DNA from: a phage
DNA: 47,573 nucleotides
Strand: one strand, 5' to 3'
Sequence record: PX132564.1
Every line of letters begins with the position of its first letter. Within the stretch, counting starts at the first letter, position 1. This document shows positions 21,659-41,542 of the stretch, piece by piece. The notes under the pieces were generated by a model. It did not search any database and was not told where the DNA came from. It worked only from the letters and a program-made list of their open reading frames with translations. A program made the translations under genes and the position numbers.

Positions 21659-22516
21659 CTAATTGGGTGATAACAGATCCTGTGTATGGGAGTTTCCCTT
21701 TTTGCGTGCGTTGATGCTGGTAACGGCAAACGTCATGATGAACAAAACCGCGAATAAGACGACAATCGTCGGAGCTGGTGCGCTGTCGATAAAAAAGGAC
21801 AACCAGACACCAGTCATTGACACTATTACCGATATGCCAGTCGCCAGTAGGAGCGCAATATGAAAGCGTTGTGTCAGGAGTACCGCAATGGCGCCAGGCG
21901 CAATGAGCAGAGAAATGGAGAGAATGATACCTACCGCTTTCAGCGTCGCCACAATGGTCAGAGAGACCATGCACAGCAGCCCATAATGCAGCCATCTCGT
22001 ATGCAAACCGCTTACCTGCGCCTGTTGATAATCAAAGCTGAACAGCAAAAAATCCCGCCATTTTACGCTAATAACAAGTGTAACCAGCCCGGCAATAATC
22101 ATCGTCTGGATTATATCGCCGATGGTTATCCCGAGCATGTCGCCGAAAAGAATATGGTCAAGATGTACGTCTGGTTTGACTGCAATATACAAGATCAGAC
22201 CTGCGGCAAACATGCCAGAAAAAACAATCCCCATCACTGTATCTTGCTTGATTCGGCTGTTGTCTTTCAGGTATCCCGTCGCCACCGCACAGAATACTCC
22301 GGCGACGAATGCCCCTGTAGCCAAAGGTAACCCCAGAATCCAGGCAAGCACGATGCCAGGAAAAACCGCATGACTCATCGCGTCACCCATCAGTGCCCAA
22401 CCTTTCAGGACCAGAAAGACCGACAGCAGCGCACAGGGTATGGAAACTACCAGTGAAATCAGCAGTGCGTGACTCATAAAGGTGAACTGCAGTGGCTCCA
22501 GTAATAATGCCATCAT
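21659..22516 (-). CDS. sitD: Mn/Fe ABC transporter permease SitD
   Basis: 285-aa polytopic membrane protein, last gene of a four-gene binding protein/ATPase/permease/permease operon. Confidence 0.85.
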   Translation of the reverse strand: MMALLLEPLQFTFMSHALLISLVVSIPCALLSVFLVLKGWALMGDAMSHAVFPGIVLAWILGLPLATGAFVAGVFCAVATGYLKDNSRIKQDTVMGIVFSGMFAAGLILYIAVKPDVHLDHILFGDMLGITIGDIIQTMIIAGLVTLVISVKWRDFLLFSFDYQQAQVSGLHTRWLHYGLLCMVSLTIVATLKAVGIILSISLLIAPGAIAVLLTQRFHIALLLATGISVIVSMTGVWLSFFIDSAPAPTIVVLFAVLFIMTFAVTSINARKKGNSHTQDLLSPN

Positions 22517-23370
22517 GAGCGATCCTCCAGCGCCTTATGCGCACGCCGACGATTTGCCAAAAGCCCATGGGTGGGCGCAAAGACAAATGCTAAAAGAAAC
22601 AGCAGTGTCTGCGCCACCACGATGATTCCACCTGTCGCGCCGTCCAGAAAGTAACTGACCCACGCGCCGAGGAAACTGGTTACACTGCCAATAGTTACAG
22701 CAATCATGAGCAGGCGGGGAAAACGATCGGTTAACAACCATGCTGTTGCACCGGGAGTCACCACCAGACAGATCACCAGAAAGGCACCAACCGTTTGCAG
22801 CGCCGCAACGGTCGAAACCGACAGCAGGGTGAAGAAGAGGAGTTTTAATCTGCCCGGATGCAATCCAATAGCACGGGCGTGATTCTCGTCGAAAAAGGTC
22901 ACCATAAGATCTTTCCATTTGAAAAAAAGCACGATGATCGAGAGAATGCCAATGATAGTGAGTTGCAGGATATCCGCCGGATCGATTGCCAGAATATTGC
23001 CCAGGACGATGGTCTGAATGTTCACAGATGTCGGGTTCAATGACACCATAAACAGCCCCAGGCCAAAAAAGGACGAGAAGATCAGACCGATGATGGCATC
23101 TTCTTTTAAGCGGGTGCGTTGGTTAAGAAACAGCATGCTGCCCGCAGCCAGTCCGCCGGAAAAGAAGGCTCCCAGAGAAAACGGAAGCCCCAGCATATAT
23201 GCCCCCGCAACACCCGGGACAATAGAGTGCGACAACGCATCGCCAATCAGCGACCAGCCTTTTAGCATCAGATAGCATGACAGGAAAGCGCAGAGACCGC
23301 CGACCATCGCCGAGACCCACATCGCATTGAGCATATATTCATAGCTGAAGGGTTCCAGTAGCACGTTCAT
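22513..23370 (-). CDS. sitC: Mn/Fe ABC transporter permease SitC
   Basis: 285-aa polytopic membrane protein, paralogous to the adjacent permease. Confidence 0.85.
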
Positions 23371-24194
23371 CTTTCTTCCCTCTGCACCGCTGACGGTCGA
23401 TGAGCCACAAAAGGGCGTTCATCGTCAGTAATAATGCTTTCTTCCGAGCCGTTAAGTGTGACATGGCGCAGTACGCCGCTAAAAGCCAGCTCTAGGTTCT
23501 CGGCTGTAAAAGTGGTGTCTGTCGGCCCGCTTGCCAGGACGGTGCCTTTGACCATGACCGTATAATCGCAAAATGTCGTGACGGATCCGAGATTGTGTGT
23601 TGAGACAAGCATCGTTTTGCCTTCCGCGCGTAACTCCCTCAACAGGCTGATGATTTTGGCTTCGGTTTTCACATCAACGCCAGTAAAAGGTTCATCCAGC
23701 AGGATCACATCACCCTGCTGTGCAATCGCTCTCGCCAGAAAGACGCGTTTCTTTTGTCCACCGGAAAGCTCGCCGATTTGTCGATGGCGAAAATTCACCA
23801 TATCGACACGTTCCAGCGCATCGGTGACAATTTGACGATCCCTCTTTTTGGCGATACGCAACATACCCATATGCCCATAGCGGCCCATCATCACCACATC
23901 TTCCACCAGTACAGGAAATGACCAGTCAACATCTTCTGACTGAGGGACGTAGGCAACCAGGTTTTTCTGTAACGCCTGTCGCGTGGGAATACCCAGAACA
24001 GATATCTTTCCGCTGGTCAGACGCACAAATCCCATAATCGCTTTAAACAACGTCGATTTTCCGGAACCGTTTACCCCAACCAGAGCGGCAATAGATCCAC
24101 TTGGTACTGTGAAGGATGCATCGCGCAGTGCTGTGTGCCCGTTACGCCAGGTGACAGTAACATCATTAACGACAATGCCTGCAGATTGCATCAT
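23367..24194 (-). CDS. sitB: Mn/Fe ABC transporter ATP-binding protein SitB
   Basis: Walker [13 protein letters not shown] signature LSGGQKKR, Walker B ILLDEP. Confidence 0.9.
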
Positions 24195-25108
24195 TATTTC
24201 TCCCTTTTCCCAGCTTTAATTCCCTGTACCAGCGTACTGGTAGTAACCTTAAGAAGGTCGATATACGTCGGTACCGGGCCGTTTTCTGTGCTCAGGGAAT
24301 CGACATAGAGCACACCGCCGTAGTGTGCGCCGGTTTCACGCGCAACCTGACGCGCTGGTTTATCGGAAATCGTACTCTCGCTAAAGACTGCCGGGATATG
24401 ATTTTTCTTAACTATATCAACAACCTTACGTACCTGCTGCGGTGTTCCTTGTTGATCGGCATTAATCGGCCACAGATAAAGCTCTTTTAGCCCCAAATCG
24501 CGTGCGAGATAAGAAAAAGCCCCTTCACTGGTGACCATCCATCGCTGATTCTCAGGGAGTTCCGTAATCTGCTTACGCAGGGGGGCAAGGGTTTGGGTAA
24601 TCTTGGCTTTATAAGTATCGGCATTGCGTTGGTAGGTTTGTGCATTTGCCGGATCGTATTTTATCAACGCATCACGAATATTATCGACGTAAATCAGAGC
24701 ATTATCTGGCGACATCCATGCATGGGGGTTAGGTTTGCCCTCATAGGGTCCTTCGGTGATCCCTACAGGCGTCACACCCGAAGAGACAATTACTTCTGGA
24801 ACCCCATTGAGATGCTGGTAAAAGCGTTGGAACCACAATTCCAGATTCATACCATTGGCGAGAATCAGTTGTGCCCCCTGCGCACGTTTAATATCGCCAG
24901 GGGTAGGCTGATACTCATGAATTTCTGCACCAGGCTTGGTTATGGATGAGACTTCTGCAGCATCTCCCGCCACGTTTTTGGCCATATCCGCGATGATGGT
25001 AAATGTTGTAATGACCTTGAATTTTTCAGTTGCACTTGCCTGAAATGCGATCGAGCAGGTGAGTGCGAGCCCCCCCAAGAGCATGGTTACTTTTTTTATC
25101 GAGTGCAT
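24194..25108 (-). CDS. sitA: periplasmic Mn/Fe-binding protein SitA
   Basis: 304-aa protein with signal peptide [26 protein letters not shown] and metal-binding-protein-like body. Confidence 0.9.
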
Positions 25109-25598: not shown

Positions 25599-25806
25599 TC
25601 GACGGAAGCAGTTCCGTTTGGTCTATGATGCAGTTGTCCGGCAGGCGCTCTGTGACGCAAAAGAACGATAGGAGTAGCATTGAAGTGAACGAGGTTATGC
25701 TTGTCTTATATTATCCTCTATTTTAAAAACATCAGCTGGTTGTGTAAGAGTTTTTATTGTTTTATCTTGTTGACTTTGCTTTTATGAAAACAGAGTGATT
25801 GATACA

Positions 25807-26565
25807 ATGAAAACCTTAAGTGGGAAAGAGTTTAGGAAATTATTTAATCGTTATGAGACAGGATTCTATCTAAGTGAGTTTGAATACTTAAAGGACTTTG
25901 ATCCTTTGTTTCCTGAATGCGTAGGGAAAGAATTAAAGTTGGGTTATAAACGAAAAGTTGATGTATGGTGCGAAGAGGATGCTGCGCTATATGCAGAATT
26001 TATAGCTACAAAAGAAAGGCTGAAAAGAGGCCGGTTAATCCTAAAAATAAACCAAGTGTGGTCGCGTGTATATCCTGCTTATATTTATGCAATTGAAGAA
26101 AGAATAAATGTCAGGGCAAAGGGGAGAGAGTCATTTAAGTATGAAACTGTGCAAGAAAAACAATGTAAACTTTCCATAATGTTAGATGGTCTGAAAGACC
26201 TTGAATGTGAAATAGCTATGATTTCAAGTGAGTTTGAAATTGAAAAACACTCTATGCACTATTTTTATATGATTTTTGATATTGAACGCTATATAAATGA
26301 CTGCAGTTACTTTGTTTTTTCTGCTGCTAAAGTTGTTAAAGGCGTGATTCAATGCATTGGTTACATTGACAAAAATAACAAAGCAAGTTGCGATGAATTT
26401 TATTCAGGCAGCTATGAATGCTTGGATGATGATCAGGAAACACTGAACTATTTAAATGAATCATGCGCAGAGGGTATAGACGCTGATAAAGATCTCATCA
26501 GGAAGAATGAGTTATTAGCCTTATCCCTGAAGGAATTGTATCAACTTCTCGTTTCAAAAAAATAA
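25807..26565 (+). CDS. hypothetical protein, AT-rich orphan (252 aa)
   Basis: Long uninterrupted ORF MKTLSGKEFRKLFNRYETGFYLSEFEYLKDFDPLF... with markedly lower GC than flanking phage DNA; AT-rich upstream with TTGACT -35-like hexamer; no family recognised. Confidence 0.55.
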   Translation: MKTLSGKEFRKLFNRYETGFYLSEFEYLKDFDPLFPECVGKELKLGYKRKVDVWCEEDAALYAEFIATKERLKRGRLILKINQVWSRVYPAYIYAIEERINVRAKGRESFKYETVQEKQCKLSIMLDGLKDLECEIAMISSEFEIEKHSMHYFYMIFDIERYINDCSYFVFSAAKVVKGVIQCIGYIDKNNKASCDEFYSGSYECLDDDQETLNYLNESCAEGIDADKDLIRKNELLALSLKELYQLLVSKK

Positions 26566-26687
26566 CAAGTAATACGGCGAGCGATATGACGTGCCATGGG
26601 ATATCCGCACCCAGCAGCATGTTGTCTCCACGATGTCCGCAGTTCGCTCATAATAGACATTCACTACAGTTATAGTAGAAGGTATGC

Positions 26688-26846
26688 ATGCTGCTGAGTG
26701 GGGAAAGTGTGAAAGAAAAGAAGACAGCTGCTTTGTTTGTCGTCACGTTTATCTTCATTGGCTATGCAAGTCGTAATACAAGGCGGGACAAAACTGAGAC
26801 ACATAAGGCCTCGCAATGGCTTGCAAGGCCACACATGTATTGAGAT
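26688..26846 (+). CDS. possible small single-helix membrane protein (52 codons)
   Basis: MLLSGESVKEKKTAALFVVTFIFIGYASRNTRRDKTETHKASQWLARPHMY; below the track length cut-off; coding status uncertain. Confidence 0.2.
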
Positions 26847-26894
26847 GTTAATAAAATGTAGACTTGTAATTTTGATATAAATGGTAGAGAAAAT

Positions 26895-26907
26895 CTTTCC
26901 CCAAAAT
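26895..26907 (+). repeat. CTTTCCCCAAAAT, distal copy of the TTCCCCAAAA repeat family (candidate Int arm-type site)
   Basis: Same motif as the three tandem copies at 27256-27292, on the other side of the icd-homologous segment. Confidence 0.35.
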
Positions 26908-27024
26908 AAAAACGAACGTCAATGAAATCAAACGGTTGAATAAAGTTGATTTTGGCTAATACAAAGACAAGAAAATAATATTTATGATTAAATATCAGCG
27001 AGTTGAATACATAATTTTTATATA

Positions 27025-27189
27025 CTGCTGCGCCATATGGGTTGGACTGAAGCGGCTGACCTGATTGTTAAAGGTATGGAAGGCGCAATCAATGCCAAGA
27101 CCGTAACCTATGACTTCGAACGTCTGATGGAAGGCGCTAAACTGCTGAAATGTTCAGAGTTTGGTGACGCGATCATCAAGAATATGTAA
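27025..27189 (+). pseudogene. icd: phage-borne copy of the icd (isocitrate dehydrogenase) 3' end within attP
   Basis: Translates in frame to ...[54 protein letters not shown], the Icd C-terminus; no upstream icd body; lies just downstream of the int 3' end. Confidence 0.8.
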
Positions 27190-27212
27190 TCACTACATGT
27201 GTTAAATATTGA

Positions 27213-27241
27213 AACGGGCGTATAACACGCCCGTTGTTTTA
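27213..27241 (+). terminator. rho-independent terminator after the icd fragment
   Basis: ACGGGCGT-ataac-ACGCCCGT followed by TGTTTTA. Confidence 0.6.
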
Positions 27242-27255
27242 TGATGATGTAAAAT

Positions 27256-27292
27256 CTTCCCCAAAACTTTCCCCAAAACCCTTCCCCAAAAC
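27256..27292 (+). repeat. three tandem 12-13 bp direct repeats (C/T)TTCCCCAAAAC, candidate integrase arm-type sites
   Basis: CTTCCCCAAAAC / TTTCCCCAAAAC / CTTCCCCAAAAC at about 27256, 27268, 27281, just beyond the int stop. Confidence 0.4.
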
Positions 27293-27302
27293 TGGCTATT
27301 TT

Positions 27303-28445
27303 CTATGCTGTTTTGATATCTACGATAATCCAGTCTTTACCACGATCATCATTGTATCGGTCGGTCATTTTTCTGGATTTATGGCCTAACAACTTTTGCG
27401 TATCCAGACCCTGTTCCCGATATAACCGTTCTGACAGAGATCGCTGCTCATGAAATGTGGGCGCAGTTCCTTGCTCCCATTTTATGCCACATTTTTCCCG
27501 GGCCTTTTTAAAAGCCGTTGTCAGAGTATTTGCAGAAACCTGGTCTCCTCTGTTTGCTTGAGAGGTAGTGTGACGGTAATGGACCAGATATTTACTAACA
27601 ACAGCATCCCTGCACTGAGATATAACTTCACGAAGGGTAATATTCAGAGCATCGCATTTCAGGTTAAGCGGAATAGCAAGTTTTGAACCGGTTTTTTCCT
27701 GAGTAATGTGCAACATGTCGTCCCATATATCAGAGAATTTCAAATTGCAGATATCGCCTAAACGTTGTCCAGTAACAAGAGCAAGTAGCATGCCGCATTT
27801 TAAATAGGGCTGCCGTCTGCTTACGCTGTCAAATATTGCCTGCCATTCGGGCAGTGACAATCTTTGGCGGTTTACTCGATTTCGCGGTTGTTTTGTTGCC
27901 TGCGCTGGGTTAAATCCTGGCGGAACATGTCCTGCGTGTTGTGCTTCTTTGAAGACGTCGATCAACACCATTCTCACGACTTGCGCCATCCTGTTATGAC
28001 CTTCAGCCTTTACAGCATCAATTATTTCGGCAATATCAAGTGCGGTAATATCCTTGAGGTGTTGCATTCCACAATGCTCACGGAAAAGACGAATGGGTTT
28101 GCCTTTTTGCCGATAGGAGTTGGGTCTTAGTTCATTATGTTGCAGCCTGTCCTCTTGGATAGAAATATATTTATCAAGCCATTCTGTCACCGTAATGTCT
28201 GAGCGCCTGCCTTTCATTCTTTCCAGACGCTCATTGACGCTTAATATTTGTCTGGTACGTTGTTCAGCAATAATGGTATTTGCTTCAGTAGCAACTTGTT
28301 TTGCTTCATTCTCATCAGTTCCTAAGCTATGAAAACGACCGGATAGTGGATGTTTGTATTGCCAATATACCTTTCCGGTTCGCTTATCTAATTTGCAATA
28401 TAAATTGGGTATAGAGATTTTGTGAGATCGGGGTCTAGCAGCCAT
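27303..28445 (-). CDS. int: tyrosine integrase (lambda Int family)
   Basis: 380-aa protein; C-terminal catalytic region ...FHEQRSLSERLYREQGLDTQKLLGHKSRKMTDRYNDDRGKDWIIVDIKTA with R..H..R..Y arrangement; adjacent to attP and xis. Confidence 0.9.
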   Translation of the reverse strand: MAARPRSHKISIPNLYCKLDKRTGKVYWQYKHPLSGRFHSLGTDENEAKQVATEANTIIAEQRTRQILSVNERLERMKGRRSDITVTEWLDKYISIQEDRLQHNELRPNSYRQKGKPIRLFREHCGMQHLKDITALDIAEIIDAVKAEGHNRMAQVVRMVLIDVFKEAQHAGHVPPGFNPAQATKQPRNRVNRQRLSLPEWQAIFDSVSRRQPYLKCGMLLALVTGQRLGDICNLKFSDIWDDMLHITQEKTGSKLAIPLNLKCDALNITLREVISQCRDAVVSKYLVHYRHTTSQANRGDQVSANTLTTAFKKAREKCGIKWEQGTAPTFHEQRSLSERLYREQGLDTQKLLGHKSRKMTDRYNDDRGKDWIIVDIKTA

Positions 28446-28671
28446 CAGCGATTATCCTTTGGAGTTTTGGGTTTGCGTTTATTGGGAGTTGCGGTTCTGC
28501 AAGCGTTCCTACAAAACGGGAATTTCGGTCAATCATCCAGTAGCGACCAACTTTTATAGCGGGTGGGGCCATCATTTTCCCTTGCGCGTATTTTTTCAGA
28601 ACTCGCTCACTTGGTGCTAAGTCCCCAAATTCTTCTTTAGCCCAGTCCTGTAAAGTGATTAGTCGAGACAT
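28435..28671 (-). CDS. xis: excisionase
   Basis: 78-aa ORF overlapping the int start as lambda xis does; small basic DNA-binding-like protein. Confidence 0.7.
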   Translation of the reverse strand: MSRLITLQDWAKEEFGDLAPSERVLKKYAQGKMMAPPAIKVGRYWMIDRNSRFVGTLAEPQLPINANPKLQRIIADGC

Positions 28672-36553: not shown

Positions 36554-39500
36554 ATGACCACTGTGAATAAAAAGTTAAAAAAAACTGCATCTGGCGCGAT
36601 TACATGGTCGGTAATTGTTACCCAGATATTATCTCCAGTTTCTCTTTCTTTGATCCCAGCAAACAGTTTTGCATCATCTGGTAATAAAGATGTTACGCAA
36701 ATTTATGCCAGCGATGAGCATGCAAATAAAGTGGCCTCATTTGCAGCAAGTGCAGGTCAGAGCCTGGCGAATAATAATGCAAGTAGTTTTGCTGTAAATA
36801 CTTTATCAACTCAGGCGACAAAAGAGGTCGTCGACTGGTTGCAACAATATGGCAATGCGCGCATCAAGCTTAATGTCGATGATTCTTTTTCCTTGAAGGA
36901 TTCATCATTCGACTTTTTATATCCATGGCTGGATACTCAGGATTATGTGTTATTCAGTCAGACATCACTACATCGTACTGATGACCGAAATCAGACCAAT
37001 ATTGGTTTGGGGATTCGTCATTTCACTCCTGATAACGCAATGTTGGGTGCGAATGTTTTCTATGATTACGATTTAAGTCGTAGTCACTCTCGTGCAGGTT
37101 TTGGGGTTGAGTACTGGAGGGATTATTTCAGGCTTGGTGTAAATACCTATTTTGGTCTATCTGACTGGAAGAACAGTCGTGATATTGATGATTATCTGGA
37201 AAGACCTGCAAATGGCTGGGATTTTTCTGCTGAAGGATGGCTACCTGCTTATCCGCAATTAGGGGCATCTATTCAGTTTGAAAAATATTATGGTAAAAAT
37301 GTCGGGTTATTTGGAAGCGATAACCTGCAGGAAAACCCTTACGCAGTTACTGGGGGAATTTCTTATACACCAGTTCCTCTGATTAAGTTTTCTGCACAGC
37401 ATAAGCAAGGACAGAGCAACACTCACGATACAACCTTTGGTGTTGAGTTTAATTATCGCCCGGGCGTTTCCTTGGCTGAACAGCTTAGCAGCGATAATGT
37501 TGCAGTTATGCGAGAAGTCCAGAACCGGCGTTATGATTTTGTTGAACGAAATAACAACATTGTTCTGGAGTACAAGAAGAAGCATGCACTGAAAATCAGT
37601 TTGCCAGAGTCTGTTCAGGGGGAGGGGGAATCAATCATCCCTGTAACACTGACAATCAACAATGCTAGTGGTGGTATCAAGTCTGTACAGTGGAATGATA
37701 GTGCATTCACTGCGGCTGGCGGCAAGATCAGTGGAAATGGCACATCATGGCAGATCACTTTACCGGCTTATAAAAGCGAAGGTGTAAATTCGTGGAATGT
37801 TGGAGCCACAGTACAGGATAACAGAGGCAACGTTTCCAACTATGCCGTGATGAATATTAGCGTTACTGATAGTGGTGTCTCGACGGCTGATTCGTCTTTT
37901 ACACTGGATGGAGATTCGTCGCCGACAATCTCTGCTGATAGCCAATCCACTTATCCGATAGTATTAAGCCTGAAAGATAGTAACGGTAAGGCATTAACCG
38001 GACTGGCTGATGACATTGAAATGTCAGTGGAATTTACAGCAGATAGCAATAGTGCTCGACAGCGTGAAACGGTAACTGCTCCGTCATTAGGCGCGGTAGA
38101 GGAAATCTCTGCTGGGGTATATCGCTCTAAAAGCGAAGGTGTAAATTCGTGGAATGTTGGAGCCACAGTACAGGATAACAGAGGCAACGTTTCCAACTAT
38201 GCCGTGATGAATATTAGCGTTACTGATAGTGGTGTCTCGACGGCTGATTCGTCTTTTACACTGGATGGAGATTCGTCGCCGACAATCTCTGCTGATAGCC
38301 AATCCACTTATCCGATAGTATTAAGCCTGAAAGATAGTAACGGTAAGGCATTAACCGGACTGGCTGATGACATTGAAATGTCAGTGGAATTTACAGCAGA
38401 TAGCAATAGTGCTCGACAGCGTGAAACGGTAACTGCTCCGTCATTAGGCGCGGTAGAGGAAATCTCTGCTGGGGTATATCGCTCTGTTCTGGCTGCTGGT
38501 TCGCAGGCTGGTACGGTACGTGTAACTGCAAAAGTTCAGGGAAAAACATTTACTCTCAGTATTAAGCAAACAGCAACAACAGAACCTGATTCTGAGGTCA
38601 GTGCTGTTTTAACCGCTGCACCAGCAGAACAGGTAGTTGGTTACAATATCAATCTACAACTGGCAGTGAAGGATTCACAAGGAAATGCAATCACTGGTGA
38701 TAACACTCTGAGCTTTTATGCTCTTAACCAGGCAGAAGGAGTCGAGTTTGGGACTGTAACGGAAAAAGACGGTGTCTATAGCGCGACAGTAACTTCAAAA
38801 CGAGCTGGTAAGATTACTATCGGTGTTAAATCTGATAGTCATGATTTCTCAGGTGTTAAGAAAGAAATCACCTTTATTGAGGACCGGCAGCAGGTTACAT
38901 TCTCTCAGTTTGAAGCCAGCCAAAATAATGCATTGGCTGATGGAAAACAGAGAAATATGGTAACTGTAAGCCTTGCGGACCGTTTCGGCAATGTTGTTCC
39001 TGGTTATGCTGTCACATTGTCTTTACCAGCAGGGATAACTCAAGTTGGTGGTGAACATGCTGTTTCAACTGACGAAAATGGTAATGCTATTTTTGCGTTA
39101 ATAAGCTCCACTCCGGGGTCTTACGTGATTACAGCTCATGCTGGTTCTCAGATGTCTACTGAGTTAACAGTGACCTTTGCATCAAATATGACCGGAGCTT
39201 CACTGTCACTGACGCCTGAAAGCAGTAGTTTAATTTCCAATATTCCTGCTAATGGTAAGGATGCAGCGGTATTAGATGTGCAGCTGACAAATACGAATGC
39301 GTCGGTCAATGGGCAAAAGATTCAGCTCATCACCTCATCTGAAGGATTATCTGTACCAACAAATATCGTGACTGATTCAACAGGGCATGTTTCTGTTCCG
39401 CTTACAACGGTGAAAGCTGGTGAGTACACGGTGACTGCACGGGTGACTGACGGTTCCCATAGCGTGGAATCTGGCAGCGTTAAGTTAACTTTTGTGCCCG

Positions 39501-40462
39501 ATGTTGCTTCTGCAGAACTGAATATGAGTGTATCAAAACAGGAGATTGTGGCCGATGGCAGTGAAAACGCAACAGTAAACATTCAGTTGGTTGATGCGAA
39601 TAACAATGCGTTTACAGGCGAGGTGGATTTAACGATTACACCATCGACGGGAGCATCATTGACCAGTAGTAATCTGCAACTGGATGCTCATGGACAGGCA
39701 ACAACGCAGTTCACTGCATCGAAATCAGGCCAGTACACAATTCAGGCCGAGTATGTTCTGGATGGGAAACGCATAACCGCAAGCCAGAATATTGATGCCG
39801 TGACGGATGTGAAGGGGGCTGTGTTGGAGATCACATCATCTGCATCTTCGGCTGTAGTGAGCGATACCAACAATCTGGTATTTACGTTACTGTTGAAAAG
39901 TAAGTCAGGCGAAGCATTAAGTGGTCGAGCATTGAATGTTAAGACATCTGGGCCGTCTAAATATGGTGCGTTGGTGGTTGATAAAACCACAGTAACGACT
40001 GATGAGAACGGTCAGGCTACGGTAAGCGTACATGGTCGAACGGTTGGTTCGTATAAATTAACGGCGACCTTAAACGAACTTGGCAGTGATGTTAGCGCGG
40101 TGAAATCATTCTCCCTGTACGCTGATGACGCAAATGGAGTATTGACTCTAACAAAAGATCCTGGTTATGAGACAAACGATGGATCTCCAGTAGGTATTTA
40201 TGCTCGATTTGTCGATCATTTTGGAAACCCATTATCTGGTACGGTTGAGTTTTCTGCTGGTAGTGAAGATAGTCCAGACTCTCAACGGGTCAAAATGGAG
40301 CCTGCTACAGTAACGTTACACTGGACAGGTAATGCAGCTTCGGAATTCAGCACCTATGAAAGTGGTTATCACTGGATTAAGGCCAAAATAACGAATAGCA
40401 AAAATACATATGAGAAAACAATAAGGACTTATGTTGTAAAACTACCTGAAAAGGATAGTTAA
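36554..40462 (+). CDS. invasin/intimin-family inverse autotransporter adhesin with multiple Big (Ig-like) repeats
   Basis: 1302 aa; signal peptide, then a beta-barrel region (…LFSQTSLHRTDDRNQTNIGLGIRHF…NPYAVTGGISYTPVPL…DRNNNIVLEYKKK) resembling Yersinia invasin/intimin, then serial Ig-like repeats; AT-rich upstream. Confidence 0.85.
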   Translation: MTTVNKKLKKTASGAITWSVIVTQILSPVSLSLIPANSFASSGNKDVTQIYASDEHANKVASFAASAGQSLANNNASSFAVNTLSTQATKEVVDWLQQYGNARIKLNVDDSFSLKDSSFDFLYPWLDTQDYVLFSQTSLHRTDDRNQTNIGLGIRHFTPDNAMLGANVFYDYDLSRSHSRAGFGVEYWRDYFRLGVNTYFGLSDWKNSRDIDDYLERPANGWDFSAEGWLPAYPQLGASIQFEKYYGKNVGLFGSDNLQENPYAVTGGISYTPVPLIKFSAQHKQGQSNTHDTTFGVEFNYRPGVSLAEQLSSDNVAVMREVQNRRYDFVERNNNIVLEYKKKHALKISLPESVQGEGESIIPVTLTINNASGGIKSVQWNDSAFTAAGGKISGNGTSWQITLPAYKSEGVNSWNVGATVQDNRGNVSNYAVMNISVTDSGVSTADSSFTLDGDSSPTISADSQSTYPIVLSLKDSNGKALTGLADDIEMSVEFTADSNSARQRETVTAPSLGAVEEISAGVYRSKSEGVNSWNVGATVQDNRGNVSNYAVMNISVTDSGVSTADSSFTLDGDSSPTISADSQSTYPIVLSLKDSNGKALTGLADDIEMSVEFTADSNSARQRETVTAPSLGAVEEISAGVYRSVLAAGSQAGTVRVTAKVQGKTFTLSIKQTATTEPDSEVSAVLTAAPAEQVVGYNINLQLAVKDSQGNAITGDNTLSFYALNQAEGVEFGTVTEKDGVYSATVTSKRAGKITIGVKSDSHDFSGVKKEITFIEDRQQVTFSQFEASQNNALADGKQRNMVTVSLADRFGNVVPGYAVTLSLPAGITQVGGEHAVSTDENGNAIFALISSTPGSYVITAHAGSQMSTELTVTFASNMTGASLSLTPESSSLISNIPANGKDAAVLDVQLTNTNASVNGQKIQLITSSEGLSVPTNIVTDSTGHVSVPLTTVKAGEYTVTARVTDGSHSVESGSVKLTFVPDVASAELNMSVSKQEIVADGSENATVNIQLVDANNNAFTGEVDLTITPSTGASLTSSNLQLDAHGQATTQFTASKSGQYTIQAEYVLDGKRITASQNIDAVTDVKGAVLEITSSASSAVVSDTNNLVFTLLLKSKSGEALSGRALNVKTSGPSKYGALVVDKTTVTTDENGQATVSVHGRTVGSYKLTATLNELGSDVSAVKSFSLYADDANGVLTLTKDPGYETNDGSPVGIYARFVDHFGNPLSGTVEFSAGSEDSPDSQRVKMEPATVTLHWTGNAASEFSTYESGYHWIKAKITNSKNTYEKTIRTYVVKLPEKDS
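37772..38485 (+). repeat. perfect tandem duplication, 2 x 357 bp (119 codons), inside the adhesin gene
   Basis: Protein segment KSEGVNSWNVGATVQDNRGNVSNYAVMNISVTDSG...EEISAGVYRS occurs twice back to back; antisense track ORFs 37760-37945 and 38087-38302 are identical over their shared 60 residues. Confidence 0.9.
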
Positions 40463-40473
40463 CAAAATTGAAT

Positions 40474-40500
40474 GGGGAGGGCTTAGCCCTCCCTCTTTTT
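40474..40500. terminator. bidirectional rho-independent terminator between convergent adhesin and esterase genes
   Basis: GGGGAGGGC-tta-GCCCTCCC(T)C followed by TTTTT on plus and an A/T-rich run on minus. Confidence 0.7.
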
Positions 40501-41542
40501 ACAGGTTAGCGTTTGGGTTTTGTTGTTGGGGAGCTGTTTTTATAGGCGCTCCCAGGTTTTTAGTAAACCACTCAACGACTCTGTTTATAATAATTGGCTG
40601 ATACCATGTCTTATCGCCATGCTCGGCCCCTTCTACCAGCACGTACTCAGCGTTATCACCGTTCTTCTTCAACATCCTGAATAGTTTGGCGCTTTGCTCA
40701 GGTGAAACCAGAGTGTCTTTGCTACCATGCATAATAAGAAATGGGGGTTTTACTCCTTTCATATGTCCGATTGGACTGGCGTTTAGCGCTTTTTCTTTTG
40801 ACGCTGTGATGGGGGCTCCCGCAAAATTTCTGAATGCAGGGCCATTGATCATTAAGGCTTCGGTTACGGCAGGAGAGCGATGAACCTCCTGCACTGATTC
40901 AGGGAACCCCTCGCCAATATTCAACAAGTCAGAAATCCCATAAAGTGTGGCAACTGCCTGAACATCTGAGGATTGCTGAAGAAAGTCACCTTTATCAAAG
41001 GTTTTGTCACCATTTGTAGTTCCCATCATCTGGGCAAGCCATCCACCGGCAGAGTCACCCAGAACTCCGATTCTTTGAGGATCAATCCCATAATTGCTGG
41101 CATGCTCTCTCAGGTAACGTATTGCAGCTTTTCCATCCTCAACTGGTGCTGGAAATGTATCAGGAATTGTTCTGTATTCTACAGCGGCCACAACAAAACC
41201 AGCTTCTGCCAGAGCCATTCTCATTTCAATAAATTTGTCATGTTCAGAAGACATGAATCCGCCGCCGGGATAATAAATAATGGCTGGTTTTAAATCATTT
41301 GTTCGCGGGACAAGAACTGACATGTGAAGCTGTCTGACAGAACGAGTTCCTTTTATCTGGGAATAAACAACATCACCAATGAGATCGACCTGGTTTCTGG
41401 TCGGTGAAACACTAATGATATCTGCACCCGGGGTGTAACCAGGAAGATTAGTCTGGACAGGTGTTGCACAACTCCCGACCGACATGGCCATTGACATACC
41501 ATACAATAGTGTTGCAGATGATAATATCTTGTTAATTTTCAT
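40499..41542 (-). CDS. alpha/beta-hydrolase esterase/lipase, probable lipoprotein
   Basis: 347 aa; lipoprotein-type signal ending in Cys; oxyanion-hole PGGGF, nucleophile elbow GDSAGG, C-terminal HG. Confidence 0.8.
   Translation of the reverse strand: MKINKILSSATLLYGMSMAMSVGSCATPVQTNLPGYTPGADIISVSPTRNQVDLIGDVVYSQIKGTRSVRQLHMSVLVPRTNDLKPAIIYYPGGGFMSSEHDKFIEMRMALAEAGFVVAAVEYRTIPDTFPAPVEDGKAAIRYLREHASNYGIDPQRIGVLGDSAGGWLAQMMGTTNGDKTFDKGDFLQQSSDVQAVATLYGISDLLNIGEGFPESVQEVHRSPAVTEALMINGPAFRNFAGAPITASKEKALNASPIGHMKGVKPPFLIMHGSKDTLVSPEQSAKLFRMLKKNGDNAEYVLVEGAEHGDKTWYQPIIINRVVEWFTKNLGAPIKTAPQQQNPNANL

Follow-up and report, generated by a model that had tools for sequence, protein, structure and literature searches.

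The DNA analysed here is a phage sequence of 47,573 nucleotides (record PX132564.1), and this whole stretch is hereafter called the window. From its first base onward, the left 24 kb runs collinear with the genomes of packaged lambdoid phages, 1H12 among them (97.5% identity; window position 1 corresponds approximately to position 52 of 1H12), and its right half is a mosaic for which phage Perceval is the nearest relative. The int gene (27303-28445, minus strand) encodes a lambda-type tyrosine integrase of 380 amino acids, whose residues 1-71 match the Pfam family Arm-DNA-bind_1 (PF09003, E = 1.8e-28) and which also matches Phage_integrase (PF00589, E = 8.9e-24). Because the arm-binding domain is of the lambda type, the enzyme belongs to a kind that needs arm sites. 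The adjacent xis gene (28435-28671, minus strand) was recognized as an excisionase gene by a match to Pfam PF07825 (Exc; score 26.5 bits, cut-off 23), and it is annotated as such in phage 21. The excisionase found beside diverse 21-type int genes is often one and the same protein, WP_000088653.1.

Beyond the int stop codon, and convergent with int, lies a block homologous to the 3′ end of host icd with its untranslated region (UTR) and terminator (27026-27242, plus strand), which we refer to as the replacement segment. A match to this block was found in 5426 of 5426 E. coli genomes, and at unoccupied sites in complete genomes the matches run from 27026 or 27031 to 27242. When compared with the unoccupied attB of EH09-18-41, where icd is followed by iraM, 209 of the 217 nucleotides were identical, including 158 of 164 in the coding part, and two amino acids differed (D/E and K/E). 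The preliminary description of this DNA, made from the sequence alone, had noted about 165 bp encoding the last ~54 residues of isocitrate dehydrogenase, together with stop codon and terminator, just beyond the int stop. The 165 nucleotides of 27025-27189 indeed translate to the isocitrate dehydrogenase C-terminus and a stop, and alignment to host icd gave identity from 27026 through the stop codon at 27187-27189. Since identity begins only with the second base of the Met codon in host icd (27026), the first codon (CTG versus ATG in the host) falls outside the homology; the earlier length therefore holds to within one codon, the homologous part being the last 53 codons plus the stop (27028-27189, plus strand), as judged by translation against the Icd of EH09-18-41. 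The same codons are annotated as a pseudogene in the phage 21 record OL657228. The intrinsic terminator of icd, a hairpin followed by a T-run (27213-27235, plus strand), was found by a terminator scan, is annotated in OL657228 and is identical in attB.

Several other genes and structures surround the site. A complete sitABCD iron/manganese ABC transporter operon (21659-25108, minus strand; Pfam ZnuA and ABC-3 matches) is located as cargo between the tail-fibre genes and the phage attachment site (attP), and the annotations of phage 21, Perceval and 3W list it too. Next to the far arm of attP lies an open reading frame of 256 amino acids (25795-26565, plus strand) that matched no Pfam family and only phrog_20520 (function unknown); its protein, WP_000567449.1, adjoins attR in AH21I008, FXCREC028 and IAI39. 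Just past the far end of attP, the int-coding strand holds a strong interrupted hairpin (26797-26837, minus strand) whose 17 pairs fall into two runs and which precedes a U-rich stretch (z = -3.2; 0 of 200 shuffles as stable). It is placed as is lambda tI/sib, which integration separates from int, and we take this as a resemblance only. Farther away, in the interval that separates the replication genes from the nin region, an inverse autotransporter of the intimin/invasin type (36554-40462, plus strand; 1302 amino acids; IAT_beta, E = 5e-101, plus several repeats of the Big_1 and Invasin_D3 families) is paired with an alpha/beta hydrolase (BD-FAE; 40499-41542, minus strand), and the same pair occurs in the Ecol_244 and Rb-23 prophages. 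A small RNA, svsR, known from the related prophage NC-SV, was considered as a further neighbor and rejected, being located in cI and not near attP.

Arm-type repeats, IHF-like sites and the candidate core

The sequence TTCCCCAAAA occurs four times without mismatch, always on the plus strand (26897-26906, 27257-27266, 27269-27278 and 27282-27291), and nowhere else in the 47.6 kb. Dinucleotide-preserving shuffles contained 0.12 copies on average, and none of 100 reached four. When up to one mismatch was allowed, the whole window held 5 copies against 3.8 expected, which is not above chance, and the repeat signal therefore lies in the exactness and clustering of the copies. Read as 12-mers, the copies are CTTTCCCCAAAA (26895), TCTTCCCCAAAA (27255), CTTTCCCCAAAA (27267) and CCTTCCCCAAAA (27280), with int-side spacings of 12 and 13 bp, and the dodecamers on both arms fit YYTTCCCCAAAA, one on the far side and three on the int side. 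The single far-side or P-arm dodecamer occupies 26895-26906 (plus strand), and the P′ arm consists of the three in tandem (27255-27266, 27267-27278 and 27280-27291, together 27255-27291, plus strand), which are annotated as P1P2P3 in OL657228. The int-side repeats are positioned 12-46 bp past the int stop, the last copy ending 11 bp from the stop codon. This is the layout given in the preliminary description, which had likened it to the P and P′ arm sites of lambda, and the likeness is apt, as both have three sites in tandem on the int side.

In every 21-type attP or attR examined, the far-side dodecamer was located at offset -359 from the P′ block. The tandem P′ repeats were also found directly after the local icd terminator, approximately 230 bases from the junction motif, in six other genera (Kosakonia, Trabulsiella, Buttiauxella, Enterobacter, Mangrovibacter and Citrobacter), where they are kept though the flanks have diverged. 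The search pattern used for these genera comprised two repeats; the third P′ copy, which lay outside the pattern, was exact at 5 of 8 loci, degenerate at 2 and absent at 1. We take the dodecamers to be putative arm-type sites to which Int would bind. A possible degenerate inverted copy, TTAGCCAAAA (26950-26959, minus strand; 2 mismatches), is kept in phage 3W, and we regard it as uncertain: about 0.6 hits of this grade are expected per 700 bp, so that a fifth, inverted copy does not exceed chance. The triple repeat was also met, as part of an E. coli-type icd attL, in a 23.5-kb contig assigned to 'uncultured Sutterella sp.' UMGS1525, whose 3′ UTR, as shown, is identical to that of the window bar one base; the contig is very probably mis-binned Escherichia DNA.

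Two predicted IHF sites lie on the core side of the far repeat. The first, H1-like, is AATCAAACGGTTG (26926-26938, plus strand) in the P arm between the far repeat and the core, and it is the sole exact match to WATCAANNNNTTR on either strand of the whole window; phage 3W has a substitution here at an N position of the consensus. The second, H2-like, is TATCAGCGAGTTG (26993-27005, plus strand), with one mismatch to the consensus. Its homologue in 3W, TATCAATGACTTA, matches the consensus perfectly despite diverged surroundings. A motif scan of the approximately 220 bp from the core to the P′ sites found no IHF-like site, unlike lambda with its H′. Judging from these motif matches, IHF would bind at the two predicted places.

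For the core, the candidate is ATATAC-TGCTGCG-CCATAT (C, 7-bp overlap, C′; 27020-27038), an imperfect inverted repeat whose half-sites have weak symmetry (ATAT plus a purine) and whose 7-bp spacer begins exactly at the start of attB identity. In this candidate frame the overlap would be TGCTGCG. Other frames, such as 27030-27036, 27031-27037 and 27033-27039, were tried as well and rejected, symmetry searches having been unconvincing.

Prophage junctions and the interval of strand exchange

Next to int genes encoding the identical integrase, a full icd of 416 amino acids convergent with int, which corresponds to attL, was found in 10 of 10 contigs among the matches listed. A place covering at least 80% of 26850-27310 was present in 1462 of 5426 complete E. 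coli genomes, and those sampled consisted of the far arm plus the icd 3′ end, namely attR, except for the top match, H31, which has an intact attP. The attB, attL and attR of E. coli genomes aligned as predicted. The order is icd, repeats and int at the attL of O157:H7 DEC4E, and sitA, far arm, icd fragment and host ymgL at the attR of AH21I008, and the e14 attR of K-12 also reads as the predicted junction. In the lysogens, the phage copy of the icd 3′ end is the one joined to icd.

Three records with unusual structures came up in the same comparison. The chromosome of E. coli FXCREC028 (NZ_CM135822.1) has three att places, and at one of them (approximately 204662-205122) there is an intact attP with far arm, core, icd piece, triple repeat and int, bearing a unique G at the equivalent of 27042; such a structure points to either a double lysogen in tandem or a duplication made in assembly. 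In phage D2 (OM475427.1, approximately 1650-2060), labelled 'partial genome', the far repeat is fused directly to an icd piece about 130 bp longer, the IHF sites are missing and Ns stand in place of the third int-side repeat. Probably, reads from the attL and attR of a lysogen were assembled into a chimera here. In E. coli IAI39 (NC_011750.1, 1992301-2042300), a sit-carrying icd prophage is split by a Mu-like prophage with transposase, Mor, Gam and myovirus tail genes, and its ends are more than 50 kb apart because of this interruption.

The position of strand exchange was bracketed with attL/attR pairs from six 21-type lysogens (WCHEC050613, MRE162, Ecol_244, SCU-152, AH21I008 and 2013C-4974) and the e14 of K-12. 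Identity with attB starts at 27026 in 21-type and at 27025 in e14-type elements, those of other genera included. The first difference between attL and attR was at 27036 in five of the seven pairs (WCHEC050613, MRE162, Ecol_244, SCU-152 and K-12 e14) and at 27042 in the other two (AH21I008 and 2013C-4974). In both WCHEC050613 and MRE162, the sequence upstream of the junction equals that of EH09-18-41, the 3′ end at attR agrees with EH09-18-41 at all eight variable positions, and attL differs from 27036 onward. For K-12 e14, position 27036 is C at attL and T in icdC, the attR allele being that of the unoccupied site. Because identity begins at 27026 and attL and attR first differ at 27036, the exchange takes place within 27026-27035, a bracket that assumes that the WCHEC050613 and K-12 hosts resembled EH09-18-41 before integration. 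Positions 27042, 27054 and 27057 are common to phage and host icd copies and therefore unusable for mapping the crossover.

Two readings of this interval were dropped on the attR sequences of SCU-152 and 2013C-4974: that the Leu codon at 27028-27030 is host-derived with the exchange to its right, as attL alone had indicated, and that C at 27036 is the host allele of one lineage. As a separate observation, the rare alleles 27036 C, 27061 T and 27063 A are shared by attL copies of both element types (locus L033, SCU-152, the e14-type AMSHJX01 and K-12), which points to an exchange of the replacement segment between 21-type and e14-type elements.

The Leu codon at 27028-27030, inside the exchange interval, is polymorphic in E. 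coli and reads CTG, TTA or also TTG. According to matches of 44-mers in complete genomes, CTG is present in 2639 of 5426 (at least 49%) and TTA in 2135 of 5426 (at least 39%). The codon was the same at both prophage ends in 7 of 7 lysogens (five CTG and two TTA), a small sample that represents approximately six independent events and in which lineage structure is uncontrolled. A distinct far-arm variant is common to the two TTA lysogens and one TTA attP (locus L016), and the TTA allele was not among the best 40 of the 860 records whose match to the far-arm junction covers 80% or more of the query. Both 21-type and e14-type elements come in versions that match the alleles of this codon. In lambda, identity of the overlap is required for recombination, and the present pattern suggests that the overlaps of phage and host may have to match here as well.

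Comparison with e14, phage 21, lambda and tRNA-gene integrators

The element e14 uses the same attB, its left homology edge is within 1 bp of that of the window, and its crossover likewise falls left of 27036. It also has one far-side and, after the icd terminator, three tandem repeats at matching offsets (the e14-type far arm carries GGTTATCAAAAC at -360, as against -359 in the 21-type), and e14-type P arms show an exact IHF consensus at the place equivalent to 26926-26938. In contrast, its repeat is GTTATCAAAA where the window has TTCCCCAAAA, and its integrase, IntE, is 60% identical to the window Int, differing at every position of residues 17-24 (CKLDKRTG against PLYSRKVN), which belong to the arm-binding domain. 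Different arm specificities acting on a shared core would be expected to look like this. Another feature of e14 is the cargo ymfD, ymfE and lit between the P′ arm and intE. No copy of GTTATCAAAA was found in the att region of the window, and because these arm repeats are absent, the module is assigned to the 21-type and not to the e14-type.

An e14-type far arm followed by the shared core and icd 3′ end and then by the 21-type triple repeat was observed in L013, L017, L021 (IMG/VR) and L055 (Citrobacter sp. Awk 4). The possibility that such mixed junctions are working attP sites was set aside; because L017 carries pin and mcrA upstream, as e14 does at its right end, they appear to be junctions of tandem arrays in which two different elements occupy icd.

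The closest described system is phage 21. Across the full 801 bp of 26600-27400, the window is 98.4% identical to phage 21, as represented by the 1991 int-xis-icd record M61865 and the complete genome OL657228, and 99.8% identical to phage Perceval. The annotation of OL657228 names an ICDH-like icd pseudogene, a terminator and 'attP ... 3 subsites P1P2P3; consensus YYTTCCCCAAAA'. On the strength of this identity and these annotations, the feature is the known attachment site of phage 21, that is, the attP of phage 21-type lambdoid phages; what the preliminary description noticed is correct and had already been described. Its statement that the arrangement is that of phages such as 21 and e14, which integrate into icd and restore the 3′ end, agrees with both the identity and the lysogen junctions at icd. 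Phage 21 and the window are alike in the icd 3′ block, the terminator, the four dodecamers, the IHF-like sites, int and xis, and only point differences occur within the icd block (27042, 27054, 27057, 27093 and 27153-27156, with a few in the UTR). The remaining genome of the window is a different lambdoid mosaic, closest to 1H12 and Perceval.

The int-xis-attP module of phage 21 is reportedly the subject of Campbell, Schneider and Song (1992) and of Wang et al. (1997). The latter are said to have put the size of the minimal 21 attP at between 366 and 418 bp, so that the outermost dodecamers would be included, to have found recombination abolished or altered when the repeats or the icd block were deleted, and to have carried out experiments on Int binding to the dodecamers and on the IHF requirement. 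In the window, the outermost repeats span 397 bp (26895-27291), which approximates the extent of attP and agrees with the reported minimal size. A literature query with the repeat sequence returned unrelated matches only.

The attP of lambda (P1, H1, P2, X1/X2/F, H2, C-O-C′, H′ and P′1-P′3) is likewise served by a heterobivalent Int with an arm-binding domain, and it shares with the window the three tandem arm sites on the int side, the arm site or sites on the far side, the P-arm IHF sites and the adjacent xis. Lambda, however, inserts between genes, has only 15 bp in common with attB and possesses an attP of about 240 bp, whereas in the window 217 bp of host gene separates the core from the P′ sites, no H′-like site was found, one clear arm site lies on the far side and all copies have one orientation. 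In P4, P22, HP1 and similar phages and islands that use tRNA genes, attP likewise replaces the target downstream of the crossover (PMC10111431). The window differs from them in having a protein-coding target and in the length of identity, approximately 217 bp versus less than 100 bp. The unusually long identity block of the icd att site has been ascribed to the replacement sequence carried by attP (PMC10111431). The attachment site of phage 21 is in icd (PMC12803456), and integration there duplicates the 3′ end and leaves the length of the open reading frame unchanged (PMC3603311).

Proposed integration mechanism and its alternatives

We propose that attP functions in the order arm-type Int site, IHF site, second IHF-like site, core, 217-bp icd copy and three tandem arm-type sites. 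Int, composed of an arm-binding N-terminal domain and a core-binding catalytic part, would bridge arm and core with the help of IHF-induced bends, and strands would be exchanged with host icd in a short overlap located at the left-hand extremity of the homologous block (27026-27035). Integration would then join the 5′ part of host icd to the phage-borne last 53 codons and terminator, and Icd would still be made because the phage-borne 3′ end completes the gene. The displaced host 3′ end would become a pseudogene at the opposite prophage end. We estimate at roughly 0.93 the probability that the window is a lambdoid phage genome with the phage 21 int-xis-attP module, in which arms, core, icd copy and mechanism are as proposed.

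The constancy of the left homology edge (27026, or 27025 in e14) across 21-type and e14-type elements and other genera is difficult to reconcile with a different view of the icd piece, namely that it is a dead remnant of imprecise excision and that the repeats are unrelated to integration and serve, for example, as int 3′-end expression signals. That view could draw on the fragment lacking its own start codon and ribosome-binding site, on its annotation as a pseudogene, and on the tandem repeats beginning only 12 bp past the int stop. Nevertheless, it is the phage copy that is joined to icd in lysogens, the fourth repeat stands across the core at a conserved offset, and e14 has this layout too, its repeat and its Int N-domain both being different, so that we consider a dead remnant highly improbable. 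Hardly any probability attaches, either, to the window being the internal junction of tandem prophages at icd, or an assembly artefact of one, and not the attP of a free phage. Such junctions seem to occur, as indicated by the intact attP within the FXCREC028 chromosome with its three att places and by the hybrids of L013, L017, L021 and L055, whose P arm is e14-type and whose P′ arm is 21-type, but the window can be aligned collinearly with packaged lambdoid genomes starting at its first base, contains one phage gene set and no host flank, and has two arms that are both 21-type. The attP sequence itself would be identical under either reading.

The remaining alternative concerns the protein that occupies the repeats. 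As lambda Xis likewise binds direct repeats in the P arm, the TTCCCCAAAA copies might be bound by Xis or another accessory protein and not by the N-terminal domain of Int. However, lambda-type Xis repeats are found only in the P arm near the core, whereas three of the four copies here are on the int side, like P′1-P′3, and the Int has a strong arm-binding domain and needs sites on both arms. The excisionases themselves give no discrimination, because they are often identical (WP_000088653.1) beside diverse 21-type int genes. We therefore judge binding by Xis to be very unlikely and retain the dodecamers as putative Int sites within the phage 21-type attP.

The locus represents a textbook case in which a phage keeps its target gene working by means of a spare 3′ end, and attP is unusually long because this spare end is carried. 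The window belongs to a 21-type phage that lysogenises at icd, where E. coli very commonly carries a prophage. The analysis is a confirmation that adds nothing new on the mechanism, and the matched polymorphism of the exchange interval is the sole lead that has some novelty. If identity of the overlap is required as in lambda, a further consequence would follow, which we put forward tentatively and hold to be less probable than not: the att overlap might split E. coli into lineages open and lineages closed to efficient lysogeny by a given phage variant.
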